This document shows, piece after piece, positions 26,942 to 35,990 of a stretch of DNA of 35,990 nucleotides. Position 1 is the first letter of the stretch, and every line of letters begins with the position of its first letter. This DNA is from an uncultured Gemmatimonadales bacterium (lineage in GTDB: Bacteria; Gemmatimonadota; Gemmatimonadetes; Longimicrobiales; Gaopeijiaceae): contig CAWELD010000005.1 of the NCBI GenBank assembly GCA_963809895.1, positions 1 through 35,990 on the forward strand, read 5' to 3'. A program made the translations under genes and the position numbers. The notes beneath the pieces were generated by a model. The model had not been told where the DNA came from. It saw nothing but the letters and a program-made list of their open reading frames with translations, and searched no databases.

Positions 26942-27229
26942 AGAAAATCTCAGTCTACTTGACTTTCCGGCCTCTGCGGCCAATTCATTCGTTGCCGCCG
27001 TAAACATTTGATTAGCCCCCCTCGAGGTTCCGGTCTGAGGTGCGCGCTCGCGGCGGTTCGTCGCCCGAGACCGGCGTTGACAGAACGGCGGGAACTCGTC
27101 GCCGGCGTGCAGATCGGCGTGTGCGAACGGGCCGAGGCGGGGGGCACCCCCACGCCCCTGAGCCACGCCTGAGCCGGCGGAGCGAGACCGACCGTGTCCG
27201 CCCTTTTCGTCCCTGGCCGGGAGCCGTGG

Positions 27230-27982
27230 ATGGGAGTGCAGTCCCAAGGCAGTGAGGAAGGCTGGACCATCGAGGGCGCCGAGCGCCTGCTCACGACCCT
27301 CACGGGGGTGGTGAGCGCGCGCCTGGTGGCCAAGGCCGGGGGCGAGATCGAGGAGATCCACGTCCTGACGACGGAAGAGATCTCTCCCAAGCAGACGGTC
27401 CGCAACGTGGAGTCCGCCCTGCTGGCGCACTTCGACCTGACCGTGGATCACCGGAAGATCTCGGTGGCCCAGACCAAGGCCGCCGTGCTGCCGCTCCGCG
27501 AGCCTCAGCTCGAAGGCGCCGGCGTCACGCTCCAGGCCGTGGCCCCCGAGGCCATGGCCCGCATGGGCGCGGGCCGCATCCTGTTCGCCGGCCACGAGAT
27601 GGCCGCCGAGCGCGCCCACCGCATCAAGATGAAGGTGGCGGTGGAGTGGAAGGGCGAGACCTTCACCGGAGAGGCCAGCGGCACCGACCTGCCCCGGACG
27701 AGGCTCGAGATCGTGGCCGAGGCCACGCTCCGGAGCATCGAGCTGGCGGTGAACGGTGCCGAGACCGAGGGGGTGGGGCAGGGCCTCAGCCTCTCGCTCG
27801 ACGGCGTGAAGCTCGTGGACGCCTTCGACCGTCAGTACGTCATGGTCGGCGTGCACGCCATCACGCCCCGCAAGGTGACCACCCTGGTGGGCTCGGCGCC
27901 GGTGGACGATTCGCCGGACCGCGCCACCATTCTAGCGACCCTACAGGCCGCGGACCGTTGGGTCCGGGGCCGATTGCAGTAG
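27230..27982 (+). CDS. Two-domain hypothetical protein; C-terminal half resembles a LeuA-regulatory-like alpha/beta domain
   Basis: GC-rich host-like codon usage; VVSARLV..GEIEEIHVLT..SPKQTVRNVESAL..VDHRKISVAQ; KVAVEWKGETFTGEASG..RLEIVAEATLRSI..ATLQAADR. Confidence 0.8.
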   Translation: MGVQSQGSEEGWTIEGAERLLTTLTGVVSARLVAKAGGEIEEIHVLTTEEISPKQTVRNVESALLAHFDLTVDHRKISVAQTKAAVLPLREPQLEGAGVTLQAVAPEAMARMGAGRILFAGHEMAAERAHRIKMKVAVEWKGETFTGEASGTDLPRTRLEIVAEATLRSIELAVNGAETEGVGQGLSLSLDGVKLVDAFDRQYVMVGVHAITPRKVTTLVGSAPVDDSPDRATILATLQAADRWVRGRLQ

Positions 27983-28126
27983 CCGAGATAACGAAGCGCC
28001 ACACACACGTTTCACCTGAAACCCAAGGAGATTCCCCCTCGGTCCGTCCAGAGCGAAGATGAGCGGATGAGCGGAGCGCCGCGGCCCGAATAGCGAAAAG
28101 GGCCGACTCCACAGCCCGTGAACGGG

Positions 28127-28137
28127 AAAGGAGGTGA
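28127..28137 (+). promoter_or_regulatory. Extended Shine-Dalgarno AAAGGAGGTGA
   Basis: 11-nt match to the canonical anti-SD, 6 nt before the ATG at 28144. Confidence 0.85.
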
Positions 28138-28143
28138 GCCGGT

Positions 28144-28218
28144 ATGCTCTTTAGCTCTCTGTTCGATTTCTTCGGAGAGGCTCTCGCGGTCATGGCCCGA
28201 GGCCTTCTGAGCTGGTAG
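28144..28218 (+). CDS. Small peptide MLFSSLFDFFGEALAVMARGLLSW (24 aa), not in the ORF track
   Basis: ATG CTC TTT ... AGC TGG TAG; strongest RBS I saw in the window; lies in-operon 40 bp before the HD-GYP gene. Confidence 0.75.
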   Translation: MLFSSLFDFFGEALAVMARGLLSW

Positions 28219-28258
28219 GGCTAGGATGGACTGAGGGGGATACACCGAGAGGGCACGG

Positions 28259-29650
28259 ATGAAGGCTATCAACGCCTACGTTCTCACGGTATGCGGAGCC
28301 GCGATCGTGGCCATCCCATTCGCTGGATGGCCGCAACTCCTCGAATTGCCAGGCGATAGCCTGACTGCTTTGGGTGTCTTGATGGGCCTTGGCCTCTTGT
28401 CCGAGCGACTATCAGTTGCGACGATCGTCGGGCAATCAGGGGGATCTCATTCCGTGACCTTCATCCCCCTGCTTGCTAGCGTGCTGCTCTTCGGCCCCGC
28501 TGCGCCTGTTCTGTTCGTGGGGGTCGTCGGAACGATCGGAGAGTTTTCGTTCCGAAAGAAAGGCGTATTGCGGGGCGTTTTCAATGTTGCGCAGTACATC
28601 CTCGCATGTACTGTGGGGGGATTCCTCTTCACTCTCGCCGGTGGCACGCCCCAAGCGCAGTTTGGGGTGGGTAGACCAGGACAGAATTTCGATCTTCAAT
28701 TCTGGGCCTTCTTTGCGTTCAGTGCTGTCCTTCTAACAATGAATCAGGTCTTGGTCTCCGGCGCCATATCCTTGTCGCAGGGGTTGCCCTTTCGTGAGGT
28801 ATGGAGGAAGATTGTGGGGCGGTCCGGCGCGAACGTCTTCTACGATGTCCTTCTCACTCCCATTGCGATTGTCATCGCCTCACTCTGCATCGAGCTCGAG
28901 AGCCTGGGGCTCCTTATCGCGGTCCTGCCCCTGCTCGCCATTCGTCACGCATATCTTACGAGCTACCGCCTTCAGCAGGCGAATCGTGATCTGCTTCGCG
29001 CACTTGTAAAGGCAATTGAGACGCGAGATCCATATACATCTGGCCACTCTCGCCGAGTGCAGGCGCTCGCGTCGAGGATTGTCCGCACTCTGGGTCTCTC
29101 TGAACGCCAAGCGTCGGCAGTCGAGCAGGCGGCGTTGCTCCATGACATTGGCAAGATCGAAGCCATCTATACTGAAATCTTGCGCAAGCCCTCAGAGTTG
29201 TCGCGGGAGGAACGAGAAGTCATCGAGTCCCATGTTACAAAGGGCGTGGAACTCCTCCGATCGCTTTCGTCGTTTCCTCGCGAGGTCATTGAAGCGGTCC
29301 GTCACCATCATGAGCGAGAAGATGGCAAGGGATATCCTGATGGCCTCCGGGGATCAGAGATTCCACTTGGAGCAAAGGTCATAAGTATCTGTGATGCCAT
29401 TGACGCGATGTTGTCCGACCGGCCATACCGGCGGGCCCTGCCGCTGAGTGCCGTGCGTGAGCAGTTGGAGATCTACTCTGGGATCCAATTCGATCCAAAG
29501 CTAGTCCAGACTGTGATAAACAGCTCAATATTGGAAGATCATGCCTCCGAATTGAGTGGGGACGTAACTGCAGACCAAGACCTGCGCACCTCCTCGGAAG
29601 CGGGAGGCTTGGCCGCGACGGGTCGCTCTACGGTCGCATCAGGCACGTGA
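28259..29650 (+). CDS. Membrane-bound HD-GYP protein (putative c-di-GMP phosphodiesterase) with N-terminal multi-TM sensor region
   Basis: About 230 hydrophobic N-terminal residues, then AIETRDPYTSGHSRRV, ALLHDIGK, HHHEREDGKGYPDGLRG, ICDAIDAMLSDRPYR, GIQFDP. Confidence 0.95.
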   Translation: MKAINAYVLTVCGAAIVAIPFAGWPQLLELPGDSLTALGVLMGLGLLSERLSVATIVGQSGGSHSVTFIPLLASVLLFGPAAPVLFVGVVGTIGEFSFRKKGVLRGVFNVAQYILACTVGGFLFTLAGGTPQAQFGVGRPGQNFDLQFWAFFAFSAVLLTMNQVLVSGAISLSQGLPFREVWRKIVGRSGANVFYDVLLTPIAIVIASLCIELESLGLLIAVLPLLAIRHAYLTSYRLQQANRDLLRALVKAIETRDPYTSGHSRRVQALASRIVRTLGLSERQASAVEQAALLHDIGKIEAIYTEILRKPSELSREEREVIESHVTKGVELLRSLSSFPREVIEAVRHHHEREDGKGYPDGLRGSEIPLGAKVISICDAIDAMLSDRPYRRALPLSAVREQLEIYSGIQFDPKLVQTVINSSILEDHASELSGDVTADQDLRTSSEAGGLAATGRSTVASGT

Positions 29651-32600
29651 TAGAAGATTCCCAAGCTCTTCTGCTCTGAGCTTTAGATTCAGACGTTCCG
29701 CAATGGTGAGTGCACGACCGGATCGTTCGGATGGCCTCGTCCCAAACCGGCGTGCGAGCCTCTCTCGTTCAATGGCAACGCGAATTGCGGGGGCCGGGAA
29801 CCGCCTAGCTATTCGTGTGCCTTCCTGATCCAACTGTCTGAGACCGTCCTCGACTCTTCCTGCGCGACACAGCATTTTCGCCTTGAACGTCAGTATAAGG
29901 CTCGGATCGAAATACCAGTGAGACCAATCGTTCAATGCTAGATGACACCGCTTGGCTAGTTCAAGCCGACCGGTCTCGAGGGCGGCTGTTCCAAGCCCGG
30001 CATGAATGACGTCCAAGAGGAACCGGCGCACGCCATTATTGAGGAGATTCTCCGCCTCTTGATACGCATGCAGGGCCTTATCGAATTGTCGCCTAGCGAG
30101 AAAGATCTCACCAAGATTGCACTGGAGATTGATTCTTTCCCCAACTGCGACGGCTTCATCGAGAAAGCGGGCCGCCCCTTGGAGGGCGTGCTCCGCCGCG
30201 TCGTACTCTCCGGTCTCGATCAACCACACGGCGTGGTTCGCTCGCGTCGTATACTGAAGTCGTAGGTCGCCGGTGTCCTCACTGTATTCCAGAAGTTCCT
30301 TCAAAGCGTTGACTGCCTCCTTGTTCGAGCCGAGACCACGAAACATCAGCGCGATAAATAGGCGGTGGTTCGCTTGGAGAATGAGCTTCTGGTCATCGAG
30401 ATCTGTTGCGAGGAGACGAGCAGCTCGTGCGCTCTCAACACTCCGCTCAGGGCGCCCATATAGGCACTCCAAGGCGAGAATCAACATGCCGCTGCAACGG
30501 TCCCGCCCAGCCAGATCCGGCACGAGCTGAGACACACGGGCAAGCGTTGGAGGGATCATCTCCAGGGAGCCGTCTCTTTCGAGGACGCGAATCCGGGATT
30601 CCGCAGCCTTCAGGAAGGTGGCCGAATCCTGGTCCATGAGGGAAGCCTCCGCCTCGGCAGCCAATCGAGCCGCGGCAATTGAGTGGGGCAAGTCGCCTGA
30701 CTCACTGCGGGCATCCAAATGTAATACCCGGCATGCCCTGGCTTCACGTCGGTTCCCGAGAATGCTGAAACGTCTCTCGGCGCGGCGAAGAAATGAGTTA
30801 CCTCTCGGGTCGCACTGTCGAAGATGCGCCTGGCCAACATGCTTGAGGTGAGTCCCGGTCACCTTATCGCCCCGGCACTCAACTGTGAGTCGTAGGAATC
30901 GGAGTCCCTCTCTGAACGCCCCCCGTCCTAATGCATGGTCAGCAGCGGCCTCCGCTAGATCGGCTGCCTGCGCACCGAGGCCGCCCCGTGTTAGATGGAT
31001 TGCAGCCTCTCCGACCCGTGGAGGGACGCGACTCGCCAAGAACCGCCCAATACTCCGGTGCGCGTGGCGTATCAAGAGAGATCCGAGGGCGGACACGGCG
31101 GATTGCTCAATTAGACGATGACGTATCCGGACGGAGTCCTCATTGTGGATGAGCAGCCCCGTCCGGAACATGCTGTCGAGGTCGTTGGATAGATCCGGGA
31201 CTGTGGTCCCTGAGAGCATCGCGATGTCACTGAGGGGTATCGTGCCTTCGTGGAGGCAAATGATGGCTAGGGCGCGGCGAGCAGCGGGCGACAATGATCC
31301 TACCACAGGTCGCAATTGCCGGTCCCAATGGGAGGACGTGACGTTGGCCGCTGCGGTGAGCCGGTCTCCATTCAATGAGGCCACCGCGAGAGCGATAAGT
31401 TGCAGAGGATTACCCAAAGCTGTGTCGAGTATTGTTTCAAGATCCGAGTGGCTGAGAGACTCCGGCGCGACCCCGACCACGAGACGGCGTGCCTCGGACC
31501 GCCTGAGTGGACGAAGCGAAGAATAGAAGACACGTGAATGTCGACGATTCTGAAACTGCAGGATTGGCGCAGAAGGATCTTCAAGTGAACCTGAAAAGAT
31601 GAGCATCAACCTACCACGGTGCCATCGCCGGTGAGCGTACTGAAACGCGGCCAGCGAGGTCGGGTCGATCCAATGCGCATCATCAACCAGGACCGCCGTC
31701 GGACGGTCGACGCACATCTGCTCCAGCGCCATCATGAGACTCGGCAGCAGCCGGCTTGAGGCGGCTTCTGGTGGCAGTGCGACGGGGGGAACCGTCTGGT
31801 CACTCGTAATGTCCAGCAAGTCTGCGATTACCGAACGCCATGGCTGCCCGATTTGTGCTAAGTCGGTCGATGTCAGGGTTCTCGCGAGACAATCGATCAT
31901 GGTGGCGAGCGGGATGCCGTGTTCAAGTCGATTGCACTCCGACCAGACCACTCGAATACCCCTGAGACTCAGCCTAAGGGCCGCCTCACGTAGGACCCGG
32001 GTCTTCCCCATTCCCGGTGCGCCAACGAGGACCTGGAAGCTCATGCCGTTTGTATTGCTAGCGAGCGATACCAATTGCTCCACGACCGCCGCTCTGCCAA
32101 GCAGAGGAGTATTGTAGGCGGCAAGTGCTCGGTCCTCTGTGCGCTCTCCCCCTCCGAGCCGAAGCGATGTCGCCGTGTGACGGAGCTCGTCCACATCTCG
32201 ATCTGAGAACCCGTGCAAGGGAGCCTCCTTCAGGAGTGACTCTGCGGAGGCCCATCGACCCGCAGCGAGGTAGGCATGAAAGAGGCGGCGAATCCATTTC
32301 GGCTCGAACTGGTCGATGGCGACCAACGCGAGACCGGCACTTTCGGCCTTCGGCCAGTCGCCAACTCTCTCAGCCTCATCCCACTGCCGTGCCGCTAGGC
32401 GCCTGATGGCGGTGCGAAGCGAAGCGACATACCCAGCAAGGGCAGACTCCGCTTCAGGAGTTGGAGCCTCTCCGAGAAGGCCACATACGGAGAGCTCTCT
32501 GAAGCCTACCGTTGTGGCTGGCCAGTCCCGAATTACGTTGCGAAGATGATCTCCATCGAGGTCATGTGGGAGAACCGGGAGGATATGGTCAGGCGTCGTC

Positions 32601-32851
32601 GAGAATACCGGGACGCCCACCCTCTGAGTCAGGTCGTAGAGCAATTGACTGAGCCGGCGCCGGGCCTTGGACTCATCAGCACGGCCCCAGAGCAGGTCCG
32701 CTGCCCGCATTCGGCTGATGCCGCCCGCACCTGAGAGATAGGCCAGCGCGGTGAGCCATCCTTGAAGCCCGGTGAGTGGCACGTGTCGCTCCGCGATGTC
32801 CATCACCGGACCGTCAAGGAGTCGCACAAAGTGCTGCCTGCCTTGAACCAT
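29639..32851 (-). CDS. Large SARP/BTAD-like + AAA (STAND-type) ATPase + TPR regulator
   Basis: N-terminal LLDGP..LAYL..SRMRAADLLWGRADESKARRRLSQLLY; Walker A GAPGMGKT; Walker B VLVDDAHWIDPTS; GNPL; C-terminal TPRs (NLGEIFLARRQFDKALHAYQEA). Start at MVQGRQ (32851) preferred over 33004. Confidence 0.82.
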   Translation of the reverse strand: MVQGRQHFVRLLDGPVMDIAERHVPLTGLQGWLTALAYLSGAGGISRMRAADLLWGRADESKARRRLSQLLYDLTQRVGVPVFSTTPDHILPVLPHDLDGDHLRNVIRDWPATTVGFRELSVCGLLGEAPTPEAESALAGYVASLRTAIRRLAARQWDEAERVGDWPKAESAGLALVAIDQFEPKWIRRLFHAYLAAGRWASAESLLKEAPLHGFSDRDVDELRHTATSLRLGGGERTEDRALAAYNTPLLGRAAVVEQLVSLASNTNGMSFQVLVGAPGMGKTRVLREAALRLSLRGIRVVWSECNRLEHGIPLATMIDCLARTLTSTDLAQIGQPWRSVIADLLDITSDQTVPPVALPPEAASSRLLPSLMMALEQMCVDRPTAVLVDDAHWIDPTSLAAFQYAHRRWHRGRLMLIFSGSLEDPSAPILQFQNRRHSRVFYSSLRPLRRSEARRLVVGVAPESLSHSDLETILDTALGNPLQLIALAVASLNGDRLTAAANVTSSHWDRQLRPVVGSLSPAARRALAIICLHEGTIPLSDIAMLSGTTVPDLSNDLDSMFRTGLLIHNEDSVRIRHRLIEQSAVSALGSLLIRHAHRSIGRFLASRVPPRVGEAAIHLTRGGLGAQAADLAEAAADHALGRGAFREGLRFLRLTVECRGDKVTGTHLKHVGQAHLRQCDPRGNSFLRRAERRFSILGNRREARACRVLHLDARSESGDLPHSIAAARLAAEAEASLMDQDSATFLKAAESRIRVLERDGSLEMIPPTLARVSQLVPDLAGRDRCSGMLILALECLYGRPERSVESARAARLLATDLDDQKLILQANHRLFIALMFRGLGSNKEAVNALKELLEYSEDTGDLRLQYTTRANHAVWLIETGEYDAAEHALQGAARFLDEAVAVGERINLQCNLGEIFLARRQFDKALHAYQEAENLLNNGVRRFLLDVIHAGLGTAALETGRLELAKRCHLALNDWSHWYFDPSLILTFKAKMLCRAGRVEDGLRQLDQEGTRIARRFPAPAIRVAIERERLARRFGTRPSERSGRALTIAERLNLKLRAEELGNLLSRA

Positions 32852-32885
32852 CGGCCTACCCTTCCGACCCAAGAGATCGCGCCAT

Positions 32886-33704
32886 TTAAGTAGATCCGCC
32901 CTTCGATCGTGTTTGACGGCTACGCGGCTGGTTGGAGCTGCGGTGTTGATGACCTCGCCGATATTCGCGCCAAAGCCACGACTCCACAATCCACTCCCAT
33001 CCAATCCTAGCCTTCAACTCAGTGGGCCGCACTCCTACTAGCCGCTTCATCTGATTGCTGAGGGCAAAGGAATCTGGATAGCCGAGTTCGAACGCGATGC
33101 GGCTGAGTGGATCATCCGAACCCAATATTCGAAGACTTGCCCTCAGAATCCGACCAAAGTGGAGACAGTGTGAGGGTACTGGCAGTCCGTATTGGGCGAA
33201 GCGACGACCGAGAGCCCGCCTAGAAAGATACAGGGAACGGGCGAGGCCACTTACGGAGCGGAGTTCTCCAGAAAGCTCCAGTGTACGGCGCACGAGTCGC
33301 CGCGGACCTGACCCTCGCAGTGTCCCTCGCCAGACCAGATAGTCTACGACACTGTCAACGAGCCTCTTCGGGCCGGCATTCACAAGTAGGCGAATATCTT
33401 CGGTAGACGGCTCTTCGTGATAGGGGAGGATACTCGTCGGCCGGCAGATCTCGACCATGTGGTACAACTCCGCTGAGGACCTTGTCTCCCCGGGCGGCAG
33501 CACAGCGACCAGGGTGACGCCCTTTGGCCTGAAGCGAACAGAGGTCATGGCCTCTGTGAAATGAGTGCCCATCTGCCAGACCAGGACGACGCCTTCACGA
33601 CCTCTCGGTGGCTCCAGCAGCGGTAGGCTCAGGTGGGTGGTTGGGGATGTGTAGGGTGGCGTCAAGAGCAAGAACTGATCCCGTCCCTTGGGTGCTGGGT
33701 GCAT
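32886..33704 (-). CDS. AraC family transcriptional regulator
   Basis: SVSGLARSLYLSRRALGRRF and LSRIAFELGYPDSFALSNQMKRLVGVRPTE double HTH. Confidence 0.88.
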   Translation of the reverse strand: MHPAPKGRDQFLLLTPPYTSPTTHLSLPLLEPPRGREGVVLVWQMGTHFTEAMTSVRFRPKGVTLVAVLPPGETRSSAELYHMVEICRPTSILPYHEEPSTEDIRLLVNAGPKRLVDSVVDYLVWRGTLRGSGPRRLVRRTLELSGELRSVSGLARSLYLSRRALGRRFAQYGLPVPSHCLHFGRILRASLRILGSDDPLSRIAFELGYPDSFALSNQMKRLVGVRPTELKARIGWEWIVESWLWREYRRGHQHRSSNQPRSRQTRSKGGST

Positions 33705-33720
33705 TGTGCGCTCCTCCGCG

Positions 33721-33738
33721 TTGACATGAGACTGTCAA
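33721..33738. promoter_or_regulatory. Perfect inverted repeat TTGACA-N6-TGTCAA upstream of the AraC gene
   Basis: ttgacatgagactgtcaa, 16 bp from the ATG. Confidence 0.6.
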
Positions 33739-33758
33739 GACATGATCGGTAGAGGGCA

Positions 33759-34586
33759 TCAGATGGCTATCAGGTGATGGAAGACGGTGGCGGAAGGCGT
33801 GCCCACACCGTCACGCGGTGGTGGATTGAACGGCCGGGACGTGACCAATCGCACGAACAGCCGCGCGCGGCCCACGCCCAGCGCCACCATCGTGGCCATC
33901 TCGCGGCGACGGGCCGTGGCTCGGGCCAGCGGGAGCCCGGCCAGGTTCACGGCCACGATGAGCAGCACCAGGAGCGGCGTGCGGATGGAGCCGGTGAGGC
34001 GGGTCTGGAGCGGCTCCGTGACGAAGGTCTTGTCCGCGTTGGTGTCGGGATAGGCGTCGGTCAGACGCTGGCCGAGCTGCGCCAGCTCCGCGCCCGCCGC
34101 CTCGCCGGCGAGGCCGGGTGACAGCCGCCCGAGGGCGTAGATCCAGTCGGTGCCCCGGCTGTGCCGCCATCCGGCGATGGACGTGCGGATGGGAATCCAC
34201 TCCGCCATGTCACCCAGCACGTCCGCGTGGTCGGGCGCCACGCCCACGATCTCGCACGGGCGCCCATCGACGTCCACCACGGAGCCCACCGCCGCCGGAT
34301 CGCGGCCGTACGCCCGCGCCCACAGGCCCTCGCTGATGACGACTCGCGCGGCCTCCTCGTCCTGGGATCCGAAGAAGCGTCGCGTCACCGGCCGCACGCC
34401 CAGCAGGTCGAAGTAGTTGGTGGACACCTCGGCGCCGCCCTCGCCCCGGACTCGCTCGATGGAATACAGCCGGTCCGATTGCGGCACCGGGAGGGGCGCC
34501 ACCAGCAGGTCGTGGACGAAGGTGAAGACGATGGCGTTGGCGCCGATCCCCAGGGCCAGCGACGCGACGTGGGCGACCTCGGCCGT
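33759..34586 (-). pseudogene. Truncated and internally deleted ADOP-like permease remnant
   Basis: SLALGIGANAIVFTFVHDLLVAPLPVPQSDRL, VSTNYFDLLGV, ARATARRREMATMVALGVGRARL. No start or prefix domain and no second half. Confidence 0.8.
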
Positions 34587-35213
34587 CTACCAGCCTCTGC
34601 GACTTGCGATGGCTACCAGACGTTCGTTGGCCGCAGGATCCTGAACGGCACCATCAACGAATAGCTGCCGTAGGCGACTCACTCCTGGTTCGCCGAGTTC
34701 GTCAGCGAGGATCTGGACTGCCTGAACCGCCACATCGCTATCCGTGCCGGCGGCGATGTCGGCGAGAAAGCCAACCACGCGCCCCTTCTCCGGCAACTGG
34801 GAGAAGAGCATGAGGGTCCCACCCCTCGCACCGCGGTCGGGCGATTCCTCGTACACTCGCTGAAGCTTCTCAAACGCATGCGGATAGGGGGTCCCACGTC
34901 CGGGGTGGGTCGAGACGACAAGAGCTGCCTTCGCGGCGACAGCAGCCCGCTGCGTACTGAGGTCATCGCCGGGACCGAACGCGACCGCGATGGCAACCAG
35001 GCTATCGGGGAAGGCGTCCAGCTCGTCGCTGGGAAGCAGTGTCCGATCCTGCGCGAGTATGGCTGCGGCCAACGACAGATGTCCGTCACGCACGGCCATC
35101 AGGGCCCTGCTCAACTCCGTTGGAGCGCCTTGCGGATCCTTGGGATCTTGACTCAGAGCCCGCGTGGGGAGGACGACGCCCGCCGCTACGAAAGCAAGAA
35201 TTGTCTTTCTCAT
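34587..35213 (-). CDS. Secreted helical hypothetical protein (HEAT-like C-terminus)
   Basis: GAGGAGG RBS; signal peptide MRKTILAFVAAGVVLPTRALSQ; DSDVAVQAVQILA. Confidence 0.7.
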   Translation of the reverse strand: MRKTILAFVAAGVVLPTRALSQDPKDPQGAPTELSRALMAVRDGHLSLAAAILAQDRTLLPSDELDAFPDSLVAIAVAFGPGDDLSTQRAAVAAKAALVVSTHPGRGTPYPHAFEKLQRVYEESPDRGARGGTLMLFSQLPEKGRVVGFLADIAAGTDSDVAVQAVQILADELGEPGVSRLRQLFVDGAVQDPAANERLVAIASRRGW

Positions 35214-35226
35214 CGTTCGGGCCTCC

Positions 35227-35457
35227 TCAATGGCGAACTCTGGTGATTACGAACCGCCATCCCCCGGTACCTCGCCAGAAGGCGAAGTGGGTGGTCGCTC
35301 CCGTGTGGATGTTTCCTGCCGCTGAAACCCGCGCATGCATGTCGCTTTGCACCGTGTTCGCGGCGGACCGAGCAGCGAAGTCGGAGGACTCCGCGATGCT
35401 GTCCCACCCTGCGTAGATGTCGTTTCGCGCTTCCCAAGACCATTCGTTCGTCTCCAC
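35227..35457 (-). CDS. Short hypothetical ORF, possibly a C-terminal fragment of a larger gene
   Basis: Protein-like composition and ends 13 bp before the next gene, but has no convincing start or RBS. Confidence 0.3.
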   Translation of the reverse strand: METNEWSWEARNDIYAGWDSIAESSDFAARSAANTVQSDMHARVSAAGNIHTGATTHFAFWRGTGGWRFVITRVRH

Positions 35458-35530
35458 TCCGCGTGAGCCTGACCCTTGACCTCGTCGCCGGGGGTTGGCG
35501 TTCTCATTTCATTGCGAGGAGCGGGTCCCC

Positions 35531-35990
35531 TCATTCTCCCACTGGAGGAGCCAAGCGGTAGATCTCGATCGTCGCGATTCCCCGGGCGTCTCTGTGCAAC
35601 ATGATGAGACGTGAGTGCGAGGTCCTGATCGGCTGGAGGTTGGATGGGAAGCGGAGCGTACCCGCATAGCCTCTCGAGATCGAGATCAGCCGCCACACTC
35701 GGTCCTCGCCCTGGATTGCGCCTCCCTCACCGTTAGCATGGATCAGCGCACTCTGGTACATGCCGAAAATCGAGTCGCCAAACCCACGGAGCTGAGTTGT
35801 AATCGGTCGACGGTCGTAGACGGGCGGTGCTCCTGCAGCCAGCGGATCAGCTTCCTGCGGCCCCATGAGCTCTTGTACGATGCCTCGACGCTCGAGCTCG
35901 GACAGCCGTTCGGCCTCGAGGGGCAGCCGGATCTCGCGAACCGTCCGTCCATCACGATCAGTCACACGGAAGGTGGTCCCGTGGGATGAT
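35531..35990 (-). CDS. C-terminal part of a putative beta-propeller-type protein (N-terminus outside the window)
   Basis: VWRLIS..GYAGTLRFP..LIMLHRDARGIATIEIYRL resembles the terminal blade of 6-bladed propeller surface proteins. Confidence 0.55.
   Translation of the reverse strand, partial: SSHGTTFRVTDRDGRTVREIRLPLEAERLSELERRGIVQELMGPQEADPLAAGAPPVYDRRPITTQLRGFGDSIFGMYQSALIHANGEGGAIQGEDRVWRLISISRGYAGTLRFPSNLQPIRTSHSRLIMLHRDARGIATIEIYRLAPPVGE

Follow-up and report, generated by a model that had tools for sequence, protein, structure and literature searches.

Linear pheromones of the Phr, PapR and NprX type are made as Sec-type precursors with a short C-terminal active unit, are matured by housekeeping peptidases and are re-imported into the cell, where they bind cytoplasmic RRNPP proteins. 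To our knowledge, few enzymes of cyclic di-GMP (c-di-GMP) turnover have a defined input. Here we describe a locus in a 35,990-nucleotide (nt) stretch of DNA from an uncultured Gemmatimonadales bacterium (contig CAWELD010000005.1 of GenBank assembly GCA_963809895.1; the whole stretch is 'the window', and its genome is G000), in which a gene for a 24-amino-acid (aa) peptide ending in tryptophan (Trp) lies directly upstream of a gene for an HD-GYP protein with a MASE9 membrane sensor domain. We find that such micro-genes are conserved and that they track the MASE9 sensor across phyla and output domains, and we propose their product as a candidate input of the sensor.

MASE9-HD-GYP proteins with the same domain architecture as the window protein include T. 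maritima TM1467 and S. venezuelae HdgA. In the main text of the preprint by Galperin and Chou (bioRxiv 10.1101/2021.11.05.467447), from which the word 'peptide' is absent, the MASE9 ligand is given as unknown and is proposed to bind within the membrane. The accessible part of the HdgA report (PMC6205966) describes a membrane-bound protein with no developmental phenotype, perhaps owing to the lack of an activating signal, and mentions neither an upstream micro-gene nor an RNA leader. The peptide, the RNA and the protease pairing reported below are not described in the literature that we searched, a body from which most subscription papers and the supplements of the MASE9 preprint (including its Fig. 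S5) fell away.

A conserved micro-gene upstream of the sensor gene

A sequence-only reading of this DNA had proposed an unannotated, Trp-terminated open reading frame (ORF) directly upstream of the HD-GYP gene, and the Shine–Dalgarno (SD) sequence, the spacer, the ORF and the 40-nt gap between its stop codon and the start of the 463-aa gene are all as claimed (Table 1). The positionally conserved small ORF (sORF) that it sought in homologous loci was found: all 88 of the related Gemmatimonadota loci that could be evaluated have an SD-led sORF of 14–35 codons at this place (84 called automatically and 4 by eye), a count that overstates independence because the loci were chosen from top hits and are mutually related. 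These 88 are what remained of 94 loci (best hits plus a selection from 114 places, from searches of 61 relatives and 251 genomes of the phylum) once 1 duplicate, 4 loci truncated at contig ends and 1 split by an insertion-sequence (IS) element were set aside; at L048 the sORF is atypical in form and could have arisen by chance. The identical rule fires on 50 of the 3,109 long ORFs of G000, the target included.

Selection acts on the encoded amino acids. The ratio of non-synonymous to synonymous substitution (dN/dS), which the earlier reading had expected to lie below 1, is 0.26 over 18 non-overlapping pairs of close Gemmatimonadota, with 1.1 and 1.7 in the shifted frames, and changes at codon positions 1, 2 and 3 in these pairs number 65, 32 and 97. 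Peptides from outside the phylum give 0.27 (31 pairs), and shifted frames over both sets range from 1.1 to 2.3. Contigs assembled from two metatranscriptome runs match the leader and the ORF, one as a 177-nt piece (28062–28238, 1 difference, depth 3.3) and the other as a 179-nt piece (28024–28202, no differences, depth 2.5); one of the three metatranscriptomes used covers the end of the upstream gene and none reaches the HD-GYP gene, a gap from which nothing is concluded, as such contigs cannot show RNA ends, strand or level. The conservation and the selection show that the 24-codon ORF is a real, conserved micro-gene. Nine of ten peptides looked up in a collection of about 15 billion proteins are absent from it, the exact window peptide among them.

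G000 carries one such locus. An apparent second copy on contig C6 was rejected as a paralog: it is an assembly overlap between window positions 28355–35990 and positions 1–7630 of C6 (7.6 kb, 99.3%), in which the C6 copy of the HD-GYP gene is frameshifted.

The peptide tracks MASE9 across phyla and outputs

MASE9 loci were gathered regardless of peptides (90 of about 125 places in Actinomycetota, 70 of about 135 in Bacillota, plus two), with long-output and weaker forms chosen deliberately in the Bacillota. The resulting test set of 161 Actinomycetota and Bacillota loci, 149 of them with MASE9 genes first in their operon, was not used to train the peptide profiles; output architecture was checked against Pfam for 34 proteins. 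Of these 149 genes, 85 are HD-GYP forms, and 75 of them have a peptide in front; the figure is 4 of a further 7 left unclassified by pattern, 7 of 29 for the histidine kinases and 2 of 7 for the GGDEF-EAL forms of Actinomycetota. Evident peptides at L192, L227, L283, L288 and L296 fall below the score threshold. The peptide thus follows the MASE9 sensor across HD-GYP, histidine-kinase and GGDEF-EAL outputs. Because similar Trp-ended genes precede MASE9 across phyla and outputs, the peptide is likely to be a signal or partner of this orphan sensor.

A search led by the conserved gene upstream of the micro-gene (UpA) gave 80 loci in Armatimonadota, Bacillota, Actinomycetota, Sumerlaeota and others. 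A complete peptide ORF is present in 70 of these, 4 are cut within the ORF, 2 have no usable downstream DNA and 4 have no peptide; all four peptide-less loci also lack a downstream MASE9-HD-GYP gene. At L145 the peptide is present with no adjacent sensor, and L047 has the RNA leader, peptide and MASE9 but an unrelated upstream gene. Several peptide–MASE9 pairs have neither the AGCG repeats of the leader nor an adjacent UpA. Cultured carriers of the module include Desulfosporosinus species and Thermosediminibacter litoriperuensis.

Natural duplications bear on which part of the peptide matters. Entire peptide genes occur as tandem copies in L195, L206, L319 and L334, and L326 encodes MKKRILGILATLATVFLASGANASWLNASWLSGK. 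The C-terminal Trp unit looks functional: in L326 the pentapeptide NASWL alone is repeated, and the two copies use different codons. Trp-repeat ORFs of another kind precede 12 of the 29 MASE9 kinases, either as subtilases with pentad tails or as small ORFs with STTWS repeats. All 53 evaluable metagenome loci of Trp-tailed S8 subtilases have a MASE9-like gene directly behind the protease (80 were fetched, of which 15 were truncated and 12 had less than 600 nt downstream), although these are not independent draws, as the query was derived from MASE9-adjacent proteases. The element that recurs upstream of MASE9 is, judging from its sequence, a source of short Trp peptides. A Trp-repeat scan of G000 itself was set aside, since most of what it picked up were GC-rich frames that do not code for protein.

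Variant loci were also recorded. A further peptide gene stands before MASE9-HD-GYP in L283, L284, L288 and L300 (two with a C-terminal HATPase domain), and the first three of these have a P1-like helix (see below) with no AGCG-repeat array. L281 is a MASE9-HD-GYP-DUF5317 fusion, and in L088 the MASE9 gene is split by an IS element. L106 (OY725879.1, 3956–6911), in a record classed as a Subdoligranulum plasmid, holds the full module and a gene that resembles DUF5317 by eye, with a U run after P1. A plasmid search with the sensor domain gave no match.

The MASE9 sensor and its predicted fold

The HD-GYP protein with a membrane-embedded N terminus that the sequence-only reading described was confirmed as MASE9 (PF20972 at residues 60–220, 25.7 bits against a cut-off of 24.3) followed by HD_5 (248–415), with the catalytic motifs HSRRV, HDIGK, HHHE..DGKGYP and D..DAM...RPY intact; it is predicted to hydrolyse c-di-GMP. 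A PDB sequence search with MASE9 found no solved relative, and Foldseek alone gave no match at an E value of 0.001 or better. The top 14 structural matches of the MASE9 model (predicted local distance difference test (pLDDT) 93.6) are all S components of energy-coupling factor (ECF) transporters, with Z scores of 8.6–11.9, root-mean-square deviations (rmsd) of 3.1–4.7 and 150–188 aligned residues; the next unrelated match has a Z score of 7.3. MASE9 is therefore predicted from the model to have the ECF S-component fold, an assignment that comes from this work and not from the MASE9 preprint.

In ECF S components, small ligands occupy a pocket within the membrane. In MASE9, the conserved positions F108, N109, Q112 and N162 line the predicted pocket. 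When the 35-aa peptide of L057 was co-folded with its own MASE9 domain, it scored 0.57, where the best of three controls reached 0.01, with runs agreeing in at least 97% of contacts and a partner pLDDT of at least 71; the result consists of scores and no interface. The mark used is reached by 116 of 157 solved pairs and 2 of 215 mismatched pairs, and at 0.60 or under lie only 18 of the solved pairs but both of the mismatched ones, counts that hold only roughly here because the co-fold used its own alignments (for the peptide, 60 of the 88 Gemmatimonadota peptides, picked for Trp near the end). The co-folding check thus passes weakly for a homologous pair; its partner was a full-length 35-aa homologue and not the 24-aa peptide of the window, on which it has no direct bearing. 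It lends weak model-based backing to a predicted peptide–MASE9 contact. The G+C content at third codon positions (GC3) of the sensor region is below that of UpA in 46 of 51 cases, and the sensor region evolves fast.

Anatomy of the peptide

The Trp terminus that drew attention to the window peptide proved common but not universal in Gemmatimonadota, being the last residue in 40 of 88 peptides and one of the last two in 75; in 67 of 71 peptides, the residue four positions ahead of the Trp is G, D or E. The window peptide is amphipathic (hydrophobic moment 0.50). Outside the phylum, K or R occurs among the first six residues in 128 of 133 peptides and small residues dominate positions −7 to −4 from the Trp (83–88% of 82 peptides), so that, by residue pattern, these peptides resemble signal peptides (for example, MKRIVFLLSSLAALVLGGGASFRW). 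Armatimonadota peptides extend 20–25 residues past an A-S-A site. The layout shared across phyla is a hydrophobic helix, small residues and, usually, xxxW.

Against Pfam and NCBIfam, the peptide profiles gave weak signal- or lipoprotein-like matches only, and none to AgrD or ComX. One of 55 non-Gemmatimonadota peptides matches Phr_nterm (E = 7e-4), and PhrK and NprX are each weakly matched by two, which is consistent with signal-peptide likeness only. Of 210 peptides, 7 carry a Cys among their last 8 residues and 4 at least two acidic residues.

The RNA leader and UpA

The region 28020–28260 folds better than 200 of 200 shuffles (z = −4.9). Its alignment fold has a long-range helix, P1, which encloses the peptide gene, and a hairpin (Table 1). 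The sequence-only reading had noted neither this RNA element nor UpA. Over 21 relatives, 13 of the 19 pairs in P1 and the hairpin are changed on both sides, a count matched by 0 of 500 shuffles and much lower in slid controls, in a test that was favoured in that the structure was derived from the same alignment. In P1, 7 of 11 pairs are changed on both sides and 90.9% of cells are paired; in the hairpin, 5 of 7 pairs are so changed. A wider scan, run without a shuffle control, placed a P1-like helix above the score threshold in 72 of 85 Gemmatimonadota loci and 108 of 138 others. Helices that hid the SD sequence or paired with the ORF in the single-sequence fold found no support in covariation, because the alignment fold keeps only a 3-pair stub of them with no double changes. 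Rfam has nothing at the locus (best E = 2.9), and there were 0 matches in 17 sources; a sigma-70 promoter scan returned 0 sites, and on the forward strand no terminator-like site separates the ORF from the HD-GYP gene.

The structure model of UpA combines an N-terminal KH-II/CDF-CTD-like domain with a C-terminal domain that resembles LeuA-regulatory and double-stranded-RNA-binding domains. The matches (LiCMS regulatory domain: Z 9.5, rmsd 3.1, 109 aligned; C-terminal domain of CzcD: Z 9.4, rmsd 2.0, 68 aligned) predict likeness of fold only. Among 37 actinobacterial genomes, which are related and in some cases incomplete, UpA occurs in all 15 with at least two AGCG repeats in the examined leader, mostly nearby on the opposite strand, and in 3 of the 22 with none or one; in two of these three it lies beside another MASE9 locus, and the locus of the third is truncated by the contig end. 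This co-occurrence makes UpA a lead, as a candidate binder of the AGCG repeats.

In many Actinomycetota (L190, L202, L203, L218, L219, L325, L326 and others), UpA lies near the peptide–MASE9 operon on the opposite strand, and the AGCG repeats remain with the peptide gene. One Gemmatimonadota clade (L037, L051, L060, L068, L078 and L082) has a gene of about 200 aa between UpA and the leader, with apparent helix-turn-helix (HTH) and receiver domains, assigned by eye. UpA is tandemly duplicated in L120, and G000 has a partial UpA paralog at C3:371596–371913.

Table 1 Features of the window and upstream elements of related loci
Feature	Position or loci	Strand	Remarks
UpA (working label), conserved upstream gene, no Pfam family	27194–27982	+	Structure model
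P1 5′ arm, long-range helix enclosing the peptide gene	28033–28049	+	Covariation
Three AGCG(G/A)A repeats (28052, 28062, 28070), unpaired in the alignment fold	28052–28075	+	
Covarying hairpin with a fourth AGCG(G/A)A (28092–28097) in its loop	28082–28105	+	Alignment fold
SD of the peptide gene, strong, AAAGGAGGTGA	28127–28137	+	6-nt spacer to ATG at 28144
Micro-gene, 24-aa peptide MLFSSLFDFFGEALAVMARGLLSW	28144–28218 (TAG 28216–28218)	+	Amphipathic helix, C-terminal G-x-x-x-W
P1 3′ arm; its G run is the only SD-like site for the next gene in many Gemmatimonadota relatives	28224–28240	+	
SD-like GAGAGGG, outside P1	28247–28253	+	5 nt ahead of the MASE9-HD-GYP start
MASE9-HD-GYP, 463 aa, predicted active c-di-GMP phosphodiesterase	28259–29650	+	Pfam, motifs, structure model
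AAA-TPR (STAND-like) regulator, 1,121 aa	29639–33004	−	Converges on the HD-GYP gene; low-GC stretch
AraC-type HTH gene	32886–33704	−	Also converges on the HD-GYP gene; same low-GC stretch
S8 subtilases with C-terminal Trp pentad repeats	L221, L224, L234, L238, L239, L350–L429		Immediately precede MASE9-like genes
Small ORFs with repeated STTWS units, no obvious hydrophobic helix	L207, L209, L222, L226, L228, L333, L341		Before Actinomycetota MASE9 histidine kinases

The neighbourhood

Between 28 and 34 kb, G+C content drops from about 70% to 56–62%. Of 93 related loci, for which just short flanks were available, 13 (from 12 genomes) have a match to the AAA-TPR gene of this stretch and 1 has a match to the AraC gene. 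The earlier reading saw no AgrB in the window, and this holds genome-wide: G000 (95% complete) has no match to PF04647. Its three polyprenyl-synthase matches all lie on contig C3, and none on the contig of the window.

A candidate peptide input and its alternatives

We propose that the micro-gene product is a precursor whose hydrophobic helix would take it to the membrane, where a peptidase would cut it after the small residues; the short Trp-ended tail (here about GLLSW) would then bind in the pocket of the neighbouring MASE9 sensor and tune the predicted c-di-GMP phosphodiesterase. The AGCG/P1 leader and UpA would set the peptide supply. In this scheme we infer the cut and release as well as the direction of the effect. 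That a cleaved, Trp-ended tail is the MASE9 ligand that tunes c-di-GMP hydrolysis has, in our estimate, a probability of about one half, and the broader statement that the peptide product acts on MASE9, cut or uncut, is probably correct. The sequence-only reading had called the peptide a ligand or subunit of the membrane sensor: the tracking of MASE9 across outputs and the weak co-fold of a homologue speak for such an action, by which the peptide would bind the sensor and may affect its phosphodiesterase. Its picture of a second messenger taking the place of a histidine kinase is too narrow, as the same class of peptide also precedes MASE9 histidine kinases.

Several observations weigh against a cleaved ligand, in addition to the relatedness of the loci counted above. 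No peptide lies upstream of any of 21 Bacillota MASE9-GGDEF genes or of the MASE9-HD-GYP paralogs L290–L292, and a minority of peptides replace the Trp by I, L, F, Y or M. The window peptide has no basic N terminus and carries Asp8 and Glu12, and early K or R occurs in just 18 of the 88 Gemmatimonadota peptides, which makes Sec export and cleavage doubtful in this lineage. The locus has no dedicated maturase. Co-variation of peptide and receptor is weak (partial rho 0.21 on pairwise identity, with pairs that are not independent and are confounded by kinship); the peptide of L014 is 91% identical to that of L005, with both changes within the last five residues, and the sensors are just 40% identical. 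An hhalign comparison of the Gemmatimonadota profile with that of the other peptides was not significant (probability 2.7%), and the kinship of the two groups therefore rests on position, RNA context and layout.

Some of these points are also what would be expected of a peptide that stays uncleaved in the inner membrane as a small subunit or modulator and docks its Trp end on MASE9 in the manner of MgrB and PhoQ. All of the linkage and selection evidence applies equally to such a subunit, and the amphipathic window peptide, with no basic n-region and with acidic residues in its helix, would suit it, as would the lack of a maturase in the locus and of AgrB in the genome; the co-fold, too, employed a full-length peptide. 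We nevertheless regard it as less likely than a cleaved ligand, because the n/h/c signal anatomy of the Bacillota, Actinomycetota and Armatimonadota peptides, the duplicated pentapeptide of L326 and the Trp repeats borne by proteases point to a detachable unit. Less likely again is that the ORF is purely a cis-acting leader, in which the translating ribosome would melt P1 and free the ribosome-binding site of the HD-GYP gene, the peptide being irrelevant. The covariation of P1 is real, P1 usually begins within about 15 nt of the micro-gene stop, and, among the 72 Gemmatimonadota loci that have both a P1 and a called start, 31 place the SD-like run of the next gene inside P1 and another 18 have no other clear SD. 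However, this SD lies inside P1 in 0 of 108 loci from other phyla, and after P1 in 92 of them, which makes pure leader control unlikely. The window has a second SD-like site outside P1, and peptides persist in tandem copies and where AGCG repeats or a clear P1 are lacking; such coupling, moreover, needs neither selection on amino acids nor a position-fixed Trp. P1 coupling may be a second layer in Gemmatimonadota, at most a lineage-specific one.

A Trp-sensing attenuator, in which a ribosome stalled at the Trp codon would regulate the gene that follows, would fit a structured leader, a Trp near the end of most peptides and the U-rich run after P1 in some Bacillota. We consider it very improbable: tandem WW occurs in just 3 of 210 peptides, in many peptides the Trp gives way to another residue or has up to about 25 residues after it, no Trp-pathway gene was found among the neighbours examined, and the forward strand has no terminator-like site before the HD-GYP gene. 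That the ORF is a chance occurrence or a by-product of RNA structure is barely credible; in the single-sequence fold the first part of the ORF does pair with the AGCG region, but this pairing is lost in the alignment fold, and both the dN/dS value and the presence of the ORF in every evaluable locus stand against it.

More broadly, and with somewhat less than even confidence, we suggest that MASE9 may be a receptor of wide occurrence, found in at least five phyla, that uses the ECF vitamin-binding fold to sense short Trp-containing peptides. Its peptides would come from micro-genes or from the tails of secreted subtilases and be read out through c-di-GMP hydrolysis, c-di-GMP synthesis or phosphorylation, and peptide output would be controlled by an AGCG-repeat RNA outside the known catalogues together with a protein dedicated to binding it. 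MASE9 and its peptides would then form an unrecognised multi-phylum family of peptide communication that includes diderms.

Comparison with known systems

This work adds the finding that the micropeptide occurs independently of the output domain, a comparison of SD placement between phyla, cases of natural duplication, the co-occurrence of UpA with AGCG repeats and the weak co-fold pass. The locus provides a candidate MASE9 ligand that is concrete and cheap to synthesise, and a rule by which the peptide that belongs to a given MASE9 gene can be sought. If the cleaved-tail proposal is true, a peptide signalling family with no dedicated maturase spans monoderm and diderm phyla and is tied to c-di-GMP, and the ECF S-component fold is used as a peptide receptor.

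Like modulators of the MgrB–PhoQ type, the micro-gene encodes a hydrophobic product in the range of 20–45 aa together with a membrane sensor; we know of no parallel among such modulators for the conserved, detachable-looking C-terminal unit or for its protease-tail equivalent. The CD1980.2 family of C. difficile also ties small membrane proteins to c-di-GMP; in the accessible part of its report (PMC13724677), these lie under c-di-GMP riboswitches and are outputs, whereas our locus has no Rfam match and its peptide seems to act on the enzyme as an input.

The AgrD/AgrC and ComX/ComP systems share with this locus a tiny peptide gene beside a polytopic sensor, an amphipathic leader and a fast-evolving sensor region of lower G+C content, and ComX also has a conserved Trp near its C terminus. 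Unlike Agr, the locus has no AgrB, no ring-forming Cys or acidic tail and no AgrD match; unlike ComX/ComP, it has no adjacent ComQ-type prenyltransferase and no ComX match. The sensor family also differs, the output here is often c-di-GMP turnover, and on sequence grounds the peptide belongs to neither the Agr nor the ComX family. In residue pattern, with their early K or R, the peptides from outside Gemmatimonadota may follow the Sec-type layout of the Phr, PapR and NprX pheromones, and the window peptide does not show this pattern; and whereas those signals act on cytoplasmic proteins, the linked partner here is a membrane sensor with an HD-GYP, kinase or GGDEF-EAL output.

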